A DNA stretch of 64,000 nucleotides, from IMG/VR virus record IMGVR_UViG_3300046047_000272; one strand, written 5' to 3'. The notes under the pieces were generated by a model. That model searched no databases. It saw only the letters and a list, made by a program, of their open reading frames with translations, and was not told the DNA's origin. Numbering within the stretch: the stretch's first letter is position 1; each line of letters opens with the position of its first letter. The translations under genes and the position numbers were made by a program. The stretch is from a virus. Its lineage: Duplodnaviria; Heunggongvirae; Uroviricota; Caudoviricetes. This document shows positions 3,112 to 60,303 of this stretch, one piece after another.

Positions 3112-4087
3112 ATGCAGGAATTCGAGGAATTGATATCTACTATTCGATACAGGAGATTGGCTCCTGTTCCCCGCCATCCTGACAGGATAAGATTCCACAT
3201 GGATGAACCATATGGTATTACTAAGGAACATCATATGATATTCAACGAAGCTAGTGAACGATATTTCAAACAACGTCCGAAAAACGATATACCCGATGGA
3301 TACAAGTACAATAGCGTCATTCAAGAGATCAAAACATTAAATGCTATGCCGACATTTCCACAACGATCAACCTCTTAATCTGGGCAAGAATGAACTTCCA
3401 ATAGGCTTCGACTCGCAACACTTGTTGCATACCGTTGACATTGCCCAATACCCGAACATGCTGATCTACGGAGGGACGGGAAGTGGTCGAACGCTGTATG
3501 ACAGTTGGATAGCCAGCAGTCTCGCCAGTAAGCCAGATGACTGGCTGGTCTGCGTCTATGATGCATTCGATGATGGTATTATGACGAATTGGTCATGGAT
3601 ACGGGATTTTCGCCCCAGAAACATCGATCTTACTGATAATATCTACAGGGATATTGACAGAATAGACCATGAATTAGCCTTACGGAAAATGATACCTGAG
3701 GACGATAGGGAACGATTACCACGAATACTACTCATCATCGACTTTAATGATCGTGTTGATGATTACCAACTCATTGAATATATTAGCCATCTCATGCATA
3801 CATATCAGGACGCAAAGTTATCCGTCATTATCACCACCCAGAGACCAGACGCTAAGCTCATACCAGAAGAATTCAGGAAGCTATTCCATAATAATGTCTA
3901 CCTTGGATTCGTTAACCCGACTATCAGAGGATTTGATCCATATTTTCCAGAGGCTATTCGCCGGCAACTTCCAAGAAAAATCGGATTGGTATCGCACACA
4001 TCATCTGTAGGATACGAGGCTGCGATGATACCTAGTCTTTCCAAGAAGGACTTGGAGCGAATACTCAATGGCCATTGTTGGCGATAA
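3112..4087 (+). pseudogene. FtsK/SpoIIIE-like P-loop ATPase, apparently split by a frameshift near 3355
   Basis: PNMLIYGGTGSGRT (Walker A variant), RILLIID (Walker B), IITTQRPDAKLIP. Upstream ORF 3112-3378 overlaps in another frame. Confidence 0.65.
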
Positions 4088-9050: not shown

Positions 9051-9167
9051 ATTGTTTACGAAGGTTTGTTATGACATGATGACCATCCTCGGTTAGATAC
9101 TCTATAGAAAGGAACAGTTCAGGCAACGATTCTGTTCTCAACGGTTAGGGATCACTTGGAGGTCATT

Positions 9168-9938
9168 ATGGAGTATATGGGCATTATGAAAACCACTGGG
9201 CAAATGACGCCATGTCACGCTAAAAATCCTGAGACATGCCGATATCATACCCAACATCAGCCATTTGACCAACATGATCTAGACTCCTTCAATGAGAGGA
9301 TCATTGCTGCACAACATCAAAACGATCACACGTCATTCAAGAAGAAGCACATGCAACCATCTATACGATTAGACGATCAGTCAACTAGGAAAGAGTATTT
9401 CACCATCATAGGATCTGATGACCGAACCATCAATGAATCATATGGCCGTGACTTAGCTCAACGCTTACTTCCCGGATCATACCGATCGTATATGTATGAT
9501 CCTTCATCACAAGAGGATGTGGCTGTCATCTTACACATGGATGATCATGGTCAGATTACCTCAGATATCTACAGCGGCCATGACAAAAGCGAAGTAGACG
9601 CCATACCGATACAGGACGCTAGCGTACAAGCACTCGCATTTACTGATCACATGCGCCAATTATCAGATCGAGTCACTGAGCTAGCCAGTCGACAAGATGA
9701 GAATGATCAGAGCGTCTACTCCTCAGTCAGCGCGGATCTCAGTGACCTTGTCAACAATCATCCATGCATTGATATTAGTGATACGGTTCCAATCGTCGAT
9801 AAGCTCGTAGATCTTAGGGATCAATACCATGATGCCGGTGATGACGCTGATTTTGACGGGGATCATGAAACAGGTGCACGATACCACGCCTCAGCTGATA
9901 TGATTGAGGATATACTACCAACATATCTAAGTCTATAG
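9168..9938 (+). CDS. hypothetical protein with N-terminal Cys/His leader
   Basis: YMGIMKTTGQMTPCHAKNPETCRYHTQH; GGAGG RBS. Confidence 0.75.
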   Translation: MEYMGIMKTTGQMTPCHAKNPETCRYHTQHQPFDQHDLDSFNERIIAAQHQNDHTSFKKKHMQPSIRLDDQSTRKEYFTIIGSDDRTINESYGRDLAQRLLPGSYRSYMYDPSSQEDVAVILHMDDHGQITSDIYSGHDKSEVDAIPIQDASVQALAFTDHMRQLSDRVTELASRQDENDQSVYSSVSADLSDLVNNHPCIDISDTVPIVDKLVDLRDQYHDAGDDADFDGDHETGARYHASADMIEDILPTYLSL

Positions 9939-9971
9939 ACATACGACACCGCTAGGATATATCTACATCTT

Positions 9972-10805
9972 ATGACATGGCATCTACAACAAAAGACCAT
10001 TAAGGACATTAAACCAGGTGACCTCACACTAGACGCTGACGGTAAGGTATCGCGCGTCTTATCAAAAACCGAGGAACATCGCCCAGATGATCTCTATGAA
10101 TTGACGTTCGTCACCAAGAATAAGACCATGACGATACTAGCTGATGGCCAACATGTCTGGCCTATAGATCCTAATCGAGGTGGTATTCCATATGAAGCTA
10201 AAGGTGAATCAGAAGCAACAACAGAGGATCTAGCCGTATGGTCCACTAGAGGGCTTCATCCATCATTGACCATCACGTCAACAGCGACAGGCGGACCATC
10301 ACGTCCATGGATGCTGAAAAGTTGTATCTTAACCGATGACTCTACCCAAGCATCGACACGAGTGGCCTGTCTAAGCGTCAATTCACCATCACACACCTTC
10401 ATGCTTGCATCACAGTCAGCGGTCAAGCAACCATCAACAACAACCACCGTACTCGTGACGGCTAATGATGGATCATCATATGAAATCTCACGTGATGACT
10501 ATGATCGCGCTATGAATGATGCCCTGCCCACGCATAATTGTGGAGGACCGCTGCCATTATCAACGATCATTCCATTAGCCGATGGGACCACCACAACCAT
10601 GGGTACCATTGCGACCGGAGACGTCGTCATCAGCCCAAGTGGACCATCTCCAGTACTATCGACGAGCCCAATCATGCCAGCCAAGAAACTCTACCATATA
10701 GATGTCGTAGACGATGACTCAGAAGAAGATTTGCCACAATGGACGATTGACGATCTTAGACAAGCAGAAGCCAGGTATCAGGCACAACATCAATTTGATT
10801 CGTGA
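9972..10805 (+). CDS. split-intein adaptor: IntC1 (class 3) - extein CGG - IntN2
   Basis: KTIKDIKPGD, ADGQHVW (block B), VACLSV (block F Cys), PTHN (block G) ending 10538; then CGG; then PLPLSTIIPLADGTTTTMGTIATGDVV (block A). Confidence 0.85.
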   Translation: MTWHLQQKTIKDIKPGDLTLDADGKVSRVLSKTEEHRPDDLYELTFVTKNKTMTILADGQHVWPIDPNRGGIPYEAKGESEATTEDLAVWSTRGLHPSLTITSTATGGPSRPWMLKSCILTDDSTQASTRVACLSVNSPSHTFMLASQSAVKQPSTTTTVLVTANDGSSYEISRDDYDRAMNDALPTHNCGGPLPLSTIIPLADGTTTTMGTIATGDVVISPSGPSPVLSTSPIMPAKKLYHIDVVDDDSEEDLPQWTIDDLRQAEARYQAQHQFDS

Positions 10806-13552
10806 CTCGCACGATGCACATCAAATCGCCATCGAATCTTTCCGCAATCATATATCCGCTCTAAACCATTCAACTCGGCTAACGCTTGCTCAGTAAGACC
10901 CTCAACAAAGATCAAATCAGGATCATCTCTGAAGCGTCGTTTCCGATATGTGAACTTATGCTGACGTTGCTTACCAATGATATAGGCGTAATCTGCAGGA
11001 AGAACAGCGTCTTGATAAAAGCCTAATCGACGATACATTGATCCATCACTAACGCTATTGTCGCTAAACGTGATCACATGATCAATATCACCTGCGACTA
11101 TAGCATGATGCAGGAGTCTACTTAACCCTCCACGTAATCGACAACCCAATAACGCTGCATATCTCACCAGTCTCATCTCACCATCATGGACACGATACGC
11201 GATGACGGCCGCAAGATCGTCATGATCCTCTTTCCGAGCAAGAGCCATGAACACACAACCAGTAGGCGCACCCTGAATATGATTCACGCGAAGGAATGAT
11301 CGTGCAGTATCGCGGTCGGGGATCACCACAACATATGATCGCGCATTCAGAGGTCGTAATAGATCAGGTCTCAGCAACGTCGTCAGATGATCCTCAACAA
11401 TAGTACGATGGTCAAGCCAATCATCCTCCCAGATCGTCATCAATCGAATACCATGATCAGCGGCTAATCGCGTCTTATCCTCATGACGAGATACGTCCTC
11501 AGGACGATGACAAGCATGCCAATGCAGCCCATTGTACTCAAAGCCAAGATGAAGATCCGGGACAAGCACATCAATCTCAGATCCACCAAGAACCGACCGA
11601 TCATTCCTCAGCACGAGATGATCGTCACCGAGCATCGATTGAATCGTATCCCCAAGATCACATTCACTCGAAGACGTATGACGACCAGACACGCACTTAG
11701 GACAATGGCCATCGTGCTCAAATGCTCGTCCCGTGACAGAACACGTCCAATGACGACCATGCTGGCATGTCCAAACTATCTGAGTCCTATCATTGATCAT
11801 CACCTGATCCGGTCTACGATCACCATTCGCCTGATCGTCCCACTCATCAGCAAGATCAGGTCGTTCCGTCGCAAGATCATTCACACCGCTCATGAGGGTC
11901 TTATGCTTGCAAAGATCGCATCCAGAGGCGTATCCTCCCCTCGCCTCGACGCTAGGAGGGCTCATCCAAGTCCAATCATGACCATGATCACATGTCCAAT
12001 AGACCGGCGTCTTCGACCAAACGCCAATCGCCGTGGGATCAACAGTGTTCTTATCAGACCATCTAACCATAAGATCAGGTCGTTCAGTCGCAAGGTCATT
12101 CCACCCGGGTAGGACTTGACGTCTCCGACAATACGGACAGGAGGCAAGACCAGTCCGTATCATAGCCTTCAGACTCCGATGATAATGACCGCCACATACA
12201 GGACATGACCAGACATATTGCCGACGATCACTAGGACAGGCAAGCACATCATCGGCCGAGCAGCCGTTCTCATCAGACCAGGCCGAAGCAAGGTTGGGTC
12301 TGGTCTTAGCCAGGCTATTCGAGTGATCATCAAGCCAAAGACGGCCATCCTCAAAAGGACACCGTCCATGCCACTTCTTCATCGTAGCCATTGAAGCTAA
12401 CCAATGATGATCGTGCCGGCATGACCAGTGACCAATATCAGGATTCTTCACTGATCCCCACAGCTCATCATCACAGATGGATGGCCAATCAGGATGCATA
12501 CCCGAACTATCATTCACGCCTGGAATGACCAGACGGCCATCACAGAAAGGACACTGACTCTTCCTAAGATGACACATGGCTCTAGCAGAAGCCGAGAAGA
12601 TCTCTCCACATGTATTGCATGACCAAAGCCAATACCGATCATCAGATGATCGTATCATCGTTGGATCTCCAGGATTGCCAGGCCACCAGGCCAGCATCGC
12701 ATCATGATGATCAGCAATCGTATCAATTCGACGATGAGCGCAGACCTGACAACAAGCATCGACACCACGATCCATAATCCGCCCAATGGTCGCATGCACA
12801 GGATGCCCCTCAGAGCACAACCAATCATAGGACGCTGATCGACGACAGGCCATTCGCTCTATGGGTTGATCTAATCGGGATCTATCAAGACGATCCATCA
12901 CCTCAGGATAGTCAGTCATATGGCCATATCGTACAAGATCTTGACATATCGGACATGCATCATGGTCATGCGTCAATGCTCTAGGCGACGATGTGAAGAC
13001 ATCACCATAGGGACATGTCCAGGTACATGACGTCAACGATGATCGTGAGATTGTCGTAGGGTCACGATTATCATGCCATAGACGCAGTAAATGATCATCG
13101 CTAGCCACATCGTTCACGCCCGGAATAATCACTAATCCTAGACAAACCGAACAACCGCCATTCCGCGTATTAGCTCTATTCTGAATAGATGATCTCCATA
13201 CATGATGACGATGATGCGGATCACGCCACCAGGCCCTCTTATTTGATGAAGCTAATAACGCATAAGGATCTAATCCCTCACGCTGATTCTCATCCCATGA
13301 CCACCAGGCCATAACGTCAGGTCGAGTAGACGCCAGGTCGTTATAGCCCTTAAGGACACGACCATGATCATATGGACAATACTGGTCATCATCATGCATC
13401 TTATCACATGACAATTGATAATGATGACCATCAGGACACGTCCACCACCATTTCTTATTACTCTTAGCGGCGACAGCAGAAGCAGGGCAATGATTCCTAT
13501 CCTCGTCCCATAGACGAGCAGCTGACGGCATATCATCTAATACGGTTCCCAT
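10790..13552 (-). CDS. free-standing homing-type endonuclease: multiple treble-clef Zn-ribbon repeats + Vsr/PD-(D/E)XK-like nuclease + Hef-like C-terminus
   Basis: Repeats of W.C..GH.W...CP.C...V.PG.NDLA..RPDL; EIDVLVPDLHLGFEYNGLHWH; IWEDDW; NHIQG...GGLSRLL...RIYDCGKIRW. Confidence 0.8.
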   Translation of the reverse strand: MGTVLDDMPSAARLWDEDRNHCPASAVAAKSNKKWWWTCPDGHHYQLSCDKMHDDDQYCPYDHGRVLKGYNDLASTRPDVMAWWSWDENQREGLDPYALLASSNKRAWWRDPHHRHHVWRSSIQNRANTRNGGCSVCLGLVIIPGVNDVASDDHLLRLWHDNRDPTTISRSSLTSCTWTCPYGDVFTSSPRALTHDHDACPICQDLVRYGHMTDYPEVMDRLDRSRLDQPIERMACRRSASYDWLCSEGHPVHATIGRIMDRGVDACCQVCAHRRIDTIADHHDAMLAWWPGNPGDPTMIRSSDDRYWLWSCNTCGEIFSASARAMCHLRKSQCPFCDGRLVIPGVNDSSGMHPDWPSICDDELWGSVKNPDIGHWSCRHDHHWLASMATMKKWHGRCPFEDGRLWLDDHSNSLAKTRPNLASAWSDENGCSADDVLACPSDRRQYVWSCPVCGGHYHRSLKAMIRTGLASCPYCRRRQVLPGWNDLATERPDLMVRWSDKNTVDPTAIGVWSKTPVYWTCDHGHDWTWMSPPSVEARGGYASGCDLCKHKTLMSGVNDLATERPDLADEWDDQANGDRRPDQVMINDRTQIVWTCQHGRHWTCSVTGRAFEHDGHCPKCVSGRHTSSSECDLGDTIQSMLGDDHLVLRNDRSVLGGSEIDVLVPDLHLGFEYNGLHWHACHRPEDVSRHEDKTRLAADHGIRLMTIWEDDWLDHRTIVEDHLTTLLRPDLLRPLNARSYVVVIPDRDTARSFLRVNHIQGAPTGCVFMALARKEDHDDLAAVIAYRVHDGEMRLVRYAALLGCRLRGGLSRLLHHAIVAGDIDHVITFSDNSVSDGSMYRRLGFYQDAVLPADYAYIIGKQRQHKFTYRKRRFRDDPDLIFVEGLTEQALAELNGLERIYDCGKIRWRFDVHRASHESN

Positions 13553-13663
13553 ACATACTATTATATCACGGAAAACACGACTATTCCACTATGGAATCAC
13601 CGTCAAATCATCATAAATTAGCTAGGGTCATCAGGTCTTATAGACGCAGAGCCATGATGCATC

Positions 13664-14641
13664 ATGATATCTACATATCTACATAATATGACCGAGACAA
13701 CAACCGTCACCTGTGACGAACGACACCTATGGACCGTATTAGACGTTCAGGATAAGACCATCATTGTCATATCCACGGAGGATATGATCAGAAATGGCGT
13801 CGATCGATATCGATTACCATCTCAACATGGACGATGGAGAAGAATCGTCACCGCCAAAGAGGACCAACCAGAGCCAGTACGATGCATCGAAGTGCAAGCA
13901 GATGAACACGTCTACCTCCTGAGTAATGGCGTCTACACCCACAATACTGGTGGCGGTAAGAGCGTGGCTCAACGAAACGTGATTTTCCATTGCATTGCTC
14001 ATGCCGCGGAAATCAAGTTTCTTGGTGTTGACTTGAAACGTGTAGAGTTATCGGCCTATAAGCCATATTCTAATGCCGTCATCGGTATAGCCACGACTCT
14101 TGAGGACGCTATCGAGGTCCTCAGATTTGCTCAGGAGACCATGATGAATCGTTATGGAGAGATGGAGGCCGCTCATCATAACAACTTCCTCGACATGGAG
14201 AACGCCGGATCGGCTCTGATGGTCATGGTTGACGAGGCCGGTGAGCTGCTAGACATGTCCTCACCAGCTAAGGCTCTTGTTGGATCAACGCCTGTGCCCA
14301 ATCTTGAGAACAGACCTGATTTAGCGCACTTACAACTTGGAGACCATATCATCGGTGATGACGGTGAATGGCATCGCGTCATTGACAAATACCAGCCAAC
14401 AACAGATAAGGCCTATAAGGTGACCATCAAGCGTGACCACGATGGTCAGAAAGAAGATTTTACCTGTGGCGCCCAACACGCGTGGACCGTCTATCCTCAT
14501 GGCGCCAATGACGAACCATTAGTTGTCAATACTGACCAGCTCATGAGTATCTGGGAATCAACACCGCCAAGCGAACGCAAGAACATCAAATTCACTAGAT
14601 CACGTACGGGCAATGCTCTGAAAGAAGCGTCTATTGATTAA
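13664..14641 (+). CDS. IntC2 - FtsK-like ATPase core extein - IntN3 (split intein fragment)
   Basis: TCDERHLW, VRCIEV, YTHN (ends 13945); extein TGGGKS...VDLKRVEL...MVDEAGELL...PAK (13946-14272); then ALVGSTPVP...LQLGDHIIG...TCGAQHAW. Confidence 0.88.
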   Translation: MISTYLHNMTETTTVTCDERHLWTVLDVQDKTIIVISTEDMIRNGVDRYRLPSQHGRWRRIVTAKEDQPEPVRCIEVQADEHVYLLSNGVYTHNTGGGKSVAQRNVIFHCIAHAAEIKFLGVDLKRVELSAYKPYSNAVIGIATTLEDAIEVLRFAQETMMNRYGEMEAAHHNNFLDMENAGSALMVMVDEAGELLDMSSPAKALVGSTPVPNLENRPDLAHLQLGDHIIGDDGEWHRVIDKYQPTTDKAYKVTIKRDHDGQKEDFTCGAQHAWTVYPHGANDEPLVVNTDQLMSIWESTPPSERKNIKFTRSRTGNALKEASID

Positions 14642-14653
14642 CCACACGGTACG

Positions 14654-15055
14654 ATGCATCATATGAACATAACTACCCTATCATCACGTCAAGAAGCATC
14701 ATCGTCCCTATTAGGATGTAATATCATGATGGAATTTGACGGCGCCCAGAACGATGAGCGAGTCATCATTGTTCCAGTAGAAGGTCTGAATCTCTTCACG
14801 ATGCAACAGATCAAACGATGTCCACAGCACTGGATATCCATTATGACATCGCCAAACATCACCCTGCTCAGACCCATCATGCTCAGCAACATCCTCATAC
14901 CAAATCGAGAGGACCCATCTGAGGCCATCATCAAATCCGTTTCCAGGAAGCCTCTCCGGCGATGCCTGTTATCAGCATCAATGGATACAGGAACCATCAC
15001 CATCAATCTTACGAATCCGAATCAAGACGACCTATCCGTCATTCTTGGTGTCTGA
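14654..15055 (+). CDS. hypothetical protein
   Basis: 133-aa ORF directly downstream of the intein gene. Confidence 0.5.
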   Translation: MHHMNITTLSSRQEASSSLLGCNIMMEFDGAQNDERVIIVPVEGLNLFTMQQIKRCPQHWISIMTSPNITLLRPIMLSNILIPNREDPSEAIIKSVSRKPLRRCLLSASMDTGTITINLTNPNQDDLSVILGV

Positions 15056-59536: not shown

Positions 59537-59580
59537 GACATCAATAGGCTTCGGCCATAAGTAAAAAGAAGGACACCATT

Positions 59581-60303
59581 ATGCAGACCACGCATCAACA
59601 CACGATTCATTGGAAGACCGTTAACCGTCATCACGCAACTATAGGATTAGATAGACATCATGATAGCGCGTTCCTGGATGTCAGGAATTCGCACGCCATC
59701 ATCACAGGTGATCATATTCCAGACATCCTGGACACAATGCATCATCTCGTCAGCCAAATGTCTTCCTTAGGGAATATCATGACCGACGACATCATCAGCC
59801 TCTCAGATGTGATCGCCCAAGCAAAGAAGAGGATCATGGACGTCTACGAGTGGGCTACCGAGCACAGGAATCCAGCAACCAATGCTGTGTATACGGTCTT
59901 GCCATCATCAATTCGCATGAACTTCGTTATCATCAATATCTGCAATCATGTACAACCACTCAGTGAAGAGGACATGACTGATCTCTCGACTATTGCACGA
60001 TTAGGTAGATACGCGCGTGTCTTCCTCGTCATTGTGGCTCATACATCACAATTATCGAGTCTGGATAATGAGATCATCATGAATACGGCGAATCGAATCA
60101 TCGTAGGTCCGACGAACCTGCCTAGCGTATACGCTTTACTGCAAGGCACATCAAGCATGGACACACCACGGCAAGCAGGCATCCTCAGCGTGTATCGGAA
60201 GGAGAAGGGCTTCATCATACCAAGAGATGATCTCCCATGGTATGATCGGTCATGGAAGAGTAAAGGCCTGTTAGCAGAACCAGCCTCTCGACAAGATGAC
60301 TAG
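59581..60303 (+). CDS. degenerate FtsK-like protein lacking Walker A
   Basis: IGLD...HAIITG; LSTIARLGRYARVFLVIVAH; N..NRIIVG. Confidence 0.5.
   Translation: MQTTHQHTIHWKTVNRHHATIGLDRHHDSAFLDVRNSHAIITGDHIPDILDTMHHLVSQMSSLGNIMTDDIISLSDVIAQAKKRIMDVYEWATEHRNPATNAVYTVLPSSIRMNFVIINICNHVQPLSEEDMTDLSTIARLGRYARVFLVIVAHTSQLSSLDNEIIMNTANRIIVGPTNLPSVYALLQGTSSMDTPRQAGILSVYRKEKGFIIPRDDLPWYDRSWKSKGLLAEPASRQDD

Follow-up and report, generated by a model that had tools for sequence, protein, structure and literature searches.

Among described systems, fractured genes (Dassa et al. 2009, PMC2677866) resemble the present locus in that, according to the parts of that paper drawn on here, a conserved enzyme is cut inside an intein, a free-standing endonuclease gene lies between the halves, and the parts are later uncoupled (steps II–IV of their scheme). 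The loci described there are two-piece, same-strand and class 1, one of them carrying part of an extra intein. The AceL NrdHF intein (Hoffmann et al. 2020, PMC7891396) is, from the portions of that report used, a natural split class 3 intein that trans-splices via its block F Cys. Natural N-inteins (IntN) of 15–37 aa are described for VidaL and PolB16, cut at the S1 site after strand β-2, and for AceL TerL and GOS TerL, cut at the S2 site; S1 and S2 are the only natural short-IntN sites given in the sections of the source that were covered (PMC13014065). Crowding of several inteins into an ATPase active site is seen in the neighbouring haloarchaeal MCM inteins, which, in the sections covered, are contiguous in one gene and not halves on an adaptor, and for which split inteins are discussed as constructive neutral evolution (PMC10643990). 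In engineered tandem trans-splicing and SICLOPPS constructs, as far as the sources covered describe them, a middle segment is placed between halves of two inteins. Our literature search covered mostly open papers and, for PMC2677866 and PMC7891396, the main text, multi-intein loci possibly being given in their supplements; within that scope no split intein in an FtsK/SpoIIIE protein, no natural IntC–extein–IntN adaptor and no gene split by three inteins was found to be reported.

The locus described here lies in a 64-kb stretch of DNA, referred to below as the window. From sequence comparison and structural modelling, we put at roughly 80% the probability that its open reading frame at 9972–10805 (piece B) is a real, conserved and most likely working trans-splicing adaptor, and equally that it is the middle link of a trans-splicing chain through which four gene products (pieces A to D) yield a membrane-anchored FtsK/SpoIIIE ATPase. 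Compared with fractured genes, the system described here has three inteins that are split, its four pieces lie as far as 103 kb from one another, the endonuclease gene is on the opposite strand and the host protein is an FtsK/SpoIIIE ATPase. An endonuclease gene does lie between intein halves, as in the 2009 description, whereas the three genes are not all on the same strand; the locus works like a fractured gene without having that exact arrangement. AceL NrdHF is a single case; here, in a large family, each gene has three split class 3 inteins, two of which are atypically cut. Like VidaL and PolB16, intein 1 is interrupted after strand β-2; its conserved IntN of 11–12 residues, however, starts with Pro and is class 3. 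Position 1 of the VidaL, PolB16, AceL TerL and GOS TerL inteins is Cys or Ser. Intein 2 is cut at about residue 55, which is neither S1, S2 nor the usual site. Unlike the man-made tandem constructs, the present arrangement is natural and its middle segment is three residues only.

If piece B splices as predicted, one natural protein would be made from four genes by three split inteins, one of these genes contributing only three residues, a natural version of a trick built by hand in protein engineering, and two inteins separated by three residues would both have to be processed by the splicing chemistry. Split class 3 inteins, a single case in 2020, would become a large family, a split site at about residue 55 would be added, and the Pro-started N-fragment of 11–12 residues would undercut the 15 residues that a 2026 paper cites as the natural record. 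Such halves would be ready candidates for labelling peptides and for ligating multiple segments. The family also contains fused and split genes alongside intein-free ones, so that constructive neutral evolution can be tested directly against regulation.

Piece B (+ strand, 277 aa) consists of the C-terminal part of intein 1 (IntC1; 9972..10538, 189 aa), a three-residue extein, Cys-Gly-Gly (10539..10547), and the N-terminal part of intein 2 (IntN2; 10548..10802), which starts with Pro1 and comprises about 55 intein residues and a 30-residue acidic tail. Intein 1 ends at Asn189 (10536–10538) and intein 2 starts at Pro193 (10548–10550); residue mapping therefore agrees with the preliminary description, made from the sequence alone, in placing only CGG between the two. 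IntC1 is a class 3 C-intein with an S1-type split, without about 10 N-terminal residues, and contains block B His61 and Trp63, block F Cys133 and block G Thr187-His188-Asn189. The class 3 W-C-T triplet (Trp63, Cys133 and Thr187) is present, as are the His-Asn end (His188-Asn189) and the +1 nucleophile, Cys190 of the micro-extein, whose first Gly is also the first Gly of Walker A. Position 1 of intein 1 is Pro, and not Cys, Ser or Thr, in 7 of 7 piece A tails and in the contiguous forms.

Piece B gave no Pfam or NCBIfam match. The best structural matches of its predicted model (mean pLDDT 61, falling below 50 over junction residues 187–196) were class 3 DnaB inteins; the Hint fold of IntC1, model residues 4–189, superimposed on residues 11–145 of MchDnaB-1 (6rix) with Z 11.8 and rmsd 2.2 over 120 aligned residues. 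That the alignment starts at residue 11 bears out the earlier statement that intein 1 lacks roughly its first dozen residues. IntN2 aligned with residues 2–55 of Msm DnaBi1, and IntC2, on piece C, begins at the strand before block B, which places the split of intein 2 between its blocks A and B, as had been proposed. The canonical split assigned to intein 3 was likewise seen, with an IntN3 of 122 aa in the window and an IntC3 of 46 aa in the relative G001. Inteins 1, 2 and 3 are thus split after about 11, 55 and 120 residues, respectively; the first two splits are atypical, and all three inteins are class 3. A variable insertion lies between blocks F and G of IntC1 (about residues 148–184; window 10413–10523), and its size in intein 1 ranges from almost nil to about 300 low-complexity residues (P0170).

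The reading frame of piece B is carried by one unitig of sequencing run X1 that spans 9100–14206 with 0 differences; since that run may be the source sample, this support is not independent. Read-through of the in-frame TAG at 9936–9938 into piece B was considered and rejected: the upstream residues contain no intein motif, homologues start at the same Met, and the genes upstream of them are unrelated.

Downstream of piece B, the open reading frame at 13688–14641 (piece C; + strand, ATG at 13688 its likely start) encodes IntC2 (13688..13945, 86 aa), an FtsK/SpoIIIE core extein (13946..14272, 109 aa) and IntN3 (14273..14641, 122 aa). IntC2 begins just before block B and has a block F Cys and a Thr-His-Asn end. 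The extein runs from TGGGKS, the rest of Walker A, to the Walker B VDEAG and matched Pfam PF01580 above cut-off (E 1e-7). With CGG of piece B, TGGGKS forms the Walker A of an FtsK/SpoIIIE ATPase, so that PF01580 and both Walker motifs are present and Walker A is complete only across pieces B and C. IntN3 starts with Ala1, has block B His-Ala-Trp and is split canonically. Across pieces B and C of the window, intein 2 shows Pro1, the W-C-T triplet, His-Asn and Thr+1, as expected of class 3; among 77 C-type proteins, block F Cys was found in 76, block B His-x-Trp in 69, and a block G Thr in 60 or Ser in 12. Intein 2 is the only one with both halves in the window, and neither piece A nor piece D was found within its 64 kb. 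Pieces B and C had no match in plasmids, and in phages piece C had weak intein matches only.

Between the halves of intein 2, and on the opposite strand, lies a 920-aa treble-clef zinc-finger repeat protein (10790..13552, −) with a nuclease domain, a presumed free-standing homing endonuclease that matched Pfam DUF4379 seven times, PHROG 3339 (homing endonuclease) at E 1e-62 and PHROG 559 at E 7e-60. The gene occupies the same position in the relatives G001 and L043; no endonuclease gene lies between pieces C and B of L040. Other features of the region include an open reading frame at 14654–15055 (133 aa), which has a 32% identical homologue near piece B of G001 and gave no usable family or fold match. 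Two short FtsK-like paralogues, whose Walker motifs are altered or absent, occur at window 3341–4087 (GGTGSGRT) and 59548–60303, and a similar one at L040:3059–3919. A Cys-x-Ala-Lys...Cys-x-x-His motif opens the frames starting at window 4499, 5194, 7139, 9156, 31127 and 54089 and is also present in G001 and L040.

The partner pieces were found in G001, a relative of 419,707 bp with terminal repeats, the only one with both B and C from the viral-collection scan and, by sequence, complete and in possession of all four pieces. Piece B (104776–105681, −) and piece C (100859–101830, −) are followed 8 kb from C by piece D, consisting of IntC3 and the C-terminal extein (91616–92692, −). Piece A (208552–209979, +) is 103 kb from piece B on the opposite strand; a search with an IntN3 profile missed its IntN1 tail, and it was recovered with a profile of intact N-terminal domains (E 3e-4). 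Complementary halves of all three inteins are thus present on separate genes of G001, with 430, 3, 109 and 304 extein residues in pieces A to D (about 846 in total), and none of its reading frames encodes an intact copy of the ATPase. Piece A of G001 ends with PMSLI followed by a Pro-Leu-Asp-Val-Asp-Thr tail. Seven A-type proteins have Pro-Leu-x-x-x-Thr near the end and soon afterwards diverge or stop, and contiguous intein 1 (L043, P0170–P0173) opens with the same motif. Since intact homologues read PHxLx-CG[T/G/K]-TGGGKS, pieces A, CGG and C would be joined in register. The preliminary description had reasoned that IntN1 must be a very short tail on another protein; such a tail is absent from the window and is carried by piece A of the relative G001.

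Modelled as a complex, IntC1 and the A tail of G001 scored 0.87, compared with 0.02 for the best of 3 controls, against a mark reached by 116 of 157 solved pairs and 2 of 215 mismatched pairs; the model speaks to binding only, of the G001 pair, and similarity to solved inteins may account for the pass. Contact agreement between runs was at least 85% and partner pLDDT at least 67, and the tail paired with piece B residues 3–10, adjoining blocks B, F and G. Together with the partner pieces and the register, this model supports the earlier proposal of piece B as a splicing adaptor by which the P-loop is completed. A 12-kb contig of run X1 matched the IntC3 junction of piece D at a depth of 27.6 (window unitigs, 25.4–26.3), a hint only that it is the window's own D. 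Run X1 also contains near-identical G001-like strains at depths above 1000 (L001:19100–19800) and other related elements, so several such elements co-occur in one sample.

The family was then described from 208 collected proteins. A word-index search had found piece B alone; this was overturned when a fused A+B protein was used as the query of a full HMMER search, whose 41 matches include 6 more A-type proteins with a tail, 12 more B-type proteins and one fragment, as well as fused forms (matched representatives come without genomic context, and P0179 may be cut at its start). Within the 208, 34 are C-type; 11 have IntC1–CGG–contiguous intein 2–core–IntN3; 2 have A–contiguous intein 1–CGS–IntN2, a form also seen at locus L043; 2 have contiguous intein 1 only; and 1 has IntC1–CGG–core without intein 2 (P0006 reads IntC1–CGG–TGSGKS). 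A further 6 are C+D fusions, 22 are C+D without intein 3, and 13 are intein-free. Inteins 1 and 2 were each found contiguous singly, three residues from the junction of the other; the contiguous tandem pair that the preliminary description had suggested looking for in relatives was absent, no protein among the 208 having both P-loop inteins contiguous. In L040, piece B is downstream of piece C, and read-through therefore cannot explain the pieces. Modelling of contiguous intein 2 gave an entire Hint domain (Z 16.3, rmsd 1.8, 126 aligned residues with Msm DnaBi1), its long, disordered insert being located exactly at the split point. In a tree of the core (52 rows, after 5 chosen rows whose core was not parsed were dropped), the contiguous intein-2 forms nest among split forms with 97/96 support, so these forms may be re-fusions; the tree does not order splitting and fusion.

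Relatives thus show A+B, B+C, C+D, A+B+C+D or intein-free genes, which bears on whether the arrangement serves regulation. The preliminary description had suggested that piece B could act as an AND-gate on ATPase activity. In such a reading, separately controlled expression or splicing of the adaptor would turn the ATPase on under some condition only. All four pieces are formally required, free-standing B persists down to 28% identity, and each of B, C and D has an apparent start signal of its own. Cys-dependent splicing can also respond to redox or metals. In the window, a promoter-like ATATCTA motif, presumably a leaderless −10 element, lies at 9959..9965 (+), ending 6 nt before the ATG of piece B, and again at 13675..13681 (+), ending 6 nt before that of piece C. 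In G001, the motif, there ATATCTT, occurred 30 times at a 6-nt spacer to an ATG and 1–9 times at each of 15 other spacers; its stricter form was chosen after seeing the data, and piece B of the window fits the looser form only. The motif precedes B, C, D, the TcpF-like gene that heads the run with A, Tad-pilus genes and others of G001, and Pfam assigned 4 of 23 scanned motif genes to pilus or transfer functions and 8 to others, leaving 11 without a match. No enrichment was seen in the window (3 at spacer 6, 0–4 elsewhere), where B and C account for 2 of the 3. The motif is possibly a shared leaderless promoter, perhaps specific to the element.

A common motif on B, C, D and the run with A suggests common rather than separate inputs, and fused or intein-free relatives indicate that the logic of a gate is not conserved. 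The formal need for every piece thus stands, whereas regulation found no support, and we consider an AND-gate improbable. The shared motif, the free variation in fusion state and the endonuclease gene between halves instead favour a selfish origin followed by lock-in, along the lines of the gene-breaking model as presented in the parts of PMC2677866 used here. Most likely, the arrangement arose without benefit: two inteins would have invaded the P-loop three codons apart, and endonuclease insertions and rearrangements would then have cut them. The homing-endonuclease gene between B and C, which the preliminary description leaves unmentioned, points to such a selfish origin, and the pieces would now be kept since the ATPase cannot be made otherwise. 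A wider reading combines a three-step assembly line, orthogonal class 3 inteins, staggered splits selected because they enforce correct pairing, an adaptor that gates conjugation by setting when, or to what level, the P-loop is completed, and a three-piece intein in the sister clade; taken jointly, these appear unlikely to us.

For the trans-splicing chain, we propose three ligations modelled on the class 3 pathway that the covered sections of PMC7891396 describe. In the first, the 11–12-residue A tail would dock into IntC1, Cys133 would attack the bond before tail Pro1, Cys190 would take the acyl group and Asn189 would cyclise, joining A to CGG. In the second, IntN2 and IntC2 of piece C would fold together and, through the block F Cys of IntC2, CGG (Gly192) would be joined to TGGGKS via Thr+1, closing the P-loop. 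In the third, IntN3 and IntC3 would add piece D. The order of these steps is probably free, as relatives have natural genes equivalent to each of the two single-spliced intermediates. Staggering of the cuts (about 11, 55 and 120) probably reduces mis-pairing, because part of the fold stays unfilled when a short N-half meets a short C-half; the A tail with IntC2 would miss about 45 fold residues, so that B could not be skipped. Charge complementarity between the halves was not evident, most of them being net acidic. With three residues between them, the two inteins may interfere with one another.

It could be that the halves only clip the pieces together or cleave, with the ATPase assembling non-covalently. 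Trans-splicing in this system is a prediction from sequence and models, and C-cleavage without splicing is common in the engineered S1 inteins described in the sections of PMC3620165 used here. The catalytic residues of both junctions are, however, all invariant, and with the P-loop distributed over three chains and two Hint domains inside it, ATP binding by an unspliced protein would hardly be possible; we regard assembly without ligation as very unlikely, and ligation by the adaptor as the preferred reading.

Conservation of piece B was examined in 15 free-standing B-type proteins with pairwise identities of 28–77% (mean 40%). Block B His and Trp, block F Cys, Thr-His-Asn, Cys+1, Gly+2 and Pro1 were invariant in all 15, and the micro-extein was exactly three residues in 27 of 27 proteins with both junctions (CGG in 23 and CGS in 4), so the arrangement is not due to chance. 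Compared with three relatives, piece B gave pN of 0.34–0.49 and pS of 0.76–0.89; the latter is saturated, and dN/dS is therefore not computable. In the G001-like strains of run X1, 17 of 18 listed variants of piece D were synonymous, including 10 of 10 within IntC3. These data bear on whether piece B is the decaying remnant of a broken gene, for which its lower identity to G001 (47%, compared with 84% for the ATPase core) could be cited. Against decay stand the open frames and invariant catalytic residues of all 15 B-type proteins, a pN far below the saturated pS, the mostly synonymous variants in D (though in D, and not B) and the lack of an intact ATPase in G001. The signs by which the preliminary description would have recognized a relic, decay and an intact ATPase elsewhere, were both absent, B being undecayed and the complete G001 having no intact copy; the invariant splicing residues, the fused and intein-free relatives and this lack argue against B being a relic, a reading that we think most improbable. 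As improbable is a self-acting, SICLOPPS-like B, in which IntN2 completes IntC1 in cis and frees cyclic Cys-Gly-Gly, or which is a decoy for other inteins: IntC–peptide–IntN is the layout of engineered cyclisation, SICLOPPS entries are among the weak fold matches and both N-halves begin Pro-Leu-x-x-Asp-Thr, but cognate partners are present for both halves, nothing else in G001 supplies the CGG link, and a three-residue ring is strained.

A sister clade has an intein after the Walker A Lys, with an N-half ending in a 15–16-aa IntN, a C-half starting with a 41-aa IntC and a separate, extein-free gene of 210–264 aa carrying the missing middle (strand β-3 to block B). Its loci are L132:1225–2649, L135:1492–2124 and L130 in G002; L133:1204–2250, L134:1417–2211 and L131 in G003; and L051:3030–3746 (−) and L049:981–1421 (−). 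Tails of the 15–16-aa IntN type are carried by 9 further N-halves. From its sequence, this P-loop intein is a candidate natural three-piece intein, of which, according to the portion of a 2023 preprint covered (bioRxiv 2023.01.30.526203), none had been proved in nature. An additional contiguous Cys1 intein lies three residues upstream of the intein-1 site in L132:1225–2649 (G002) and in P0200, bringing the insertion sites in the ATPase to at least five, four of them in or beside the P-loop.

The window's protein occurs on a contig of up to 491 kb from bioreactor sludge. Relatives, which are filed as viruses, carry AAA_10 (3 of 3), TcpF-like, TpcC-like and Tad genes, and in G001 and L043 piece A is located after a TcpF-like gene and a signal peptidase, encoded with transfer genes. 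No terminase above cut-off was found in the 3 relatives for the two families searched, which does not settle phage versus plasmid, nor was a TrwC relaxase, the one relaxase family searched, found in any of them. TcpA-like coupling proteins of Clostridium perfringens plasmids are similar in having an N-terminal membrane part and an FtsK ATPase and in being encoded beside a TcpF-like gene; they differ in being without inteins and are 25–27% identical over about one-third of the protein. The records of these C. perfringens proteins read 'FtsK/SpoIIIE domain-containing protein'. With the best plasmid matches only 25–29% identical, no NCBIfam model reaching its cut-off and no TrwC relaxase, the case for conjugation is weak. 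The ATPase is probably a TcpA-like conjugative DNA pump, and a conjugative mega-element with such a pump is the best reading of the gene content. A GTDB scan returned 57 matches, of which 1, on a 3-kb contig, was close and the rest were generic FtsK, so that no host is assignable.

The TcpF/VirB4-like ATPase is itself found in two genes, about 15 kb apart on opposite strands (L032:3373–4812 and G001 223038–224264(−); 479 and 408 aa, no intein), and in G002 and G003 the AAA_10 part likewise measures about 400 aa. At L058:16127–18204 and L068:15538–16905, piece D is interrupted in its ATQRPD region, and the flanks of the interruption resemble group I intron ends, making it a candidate intron.
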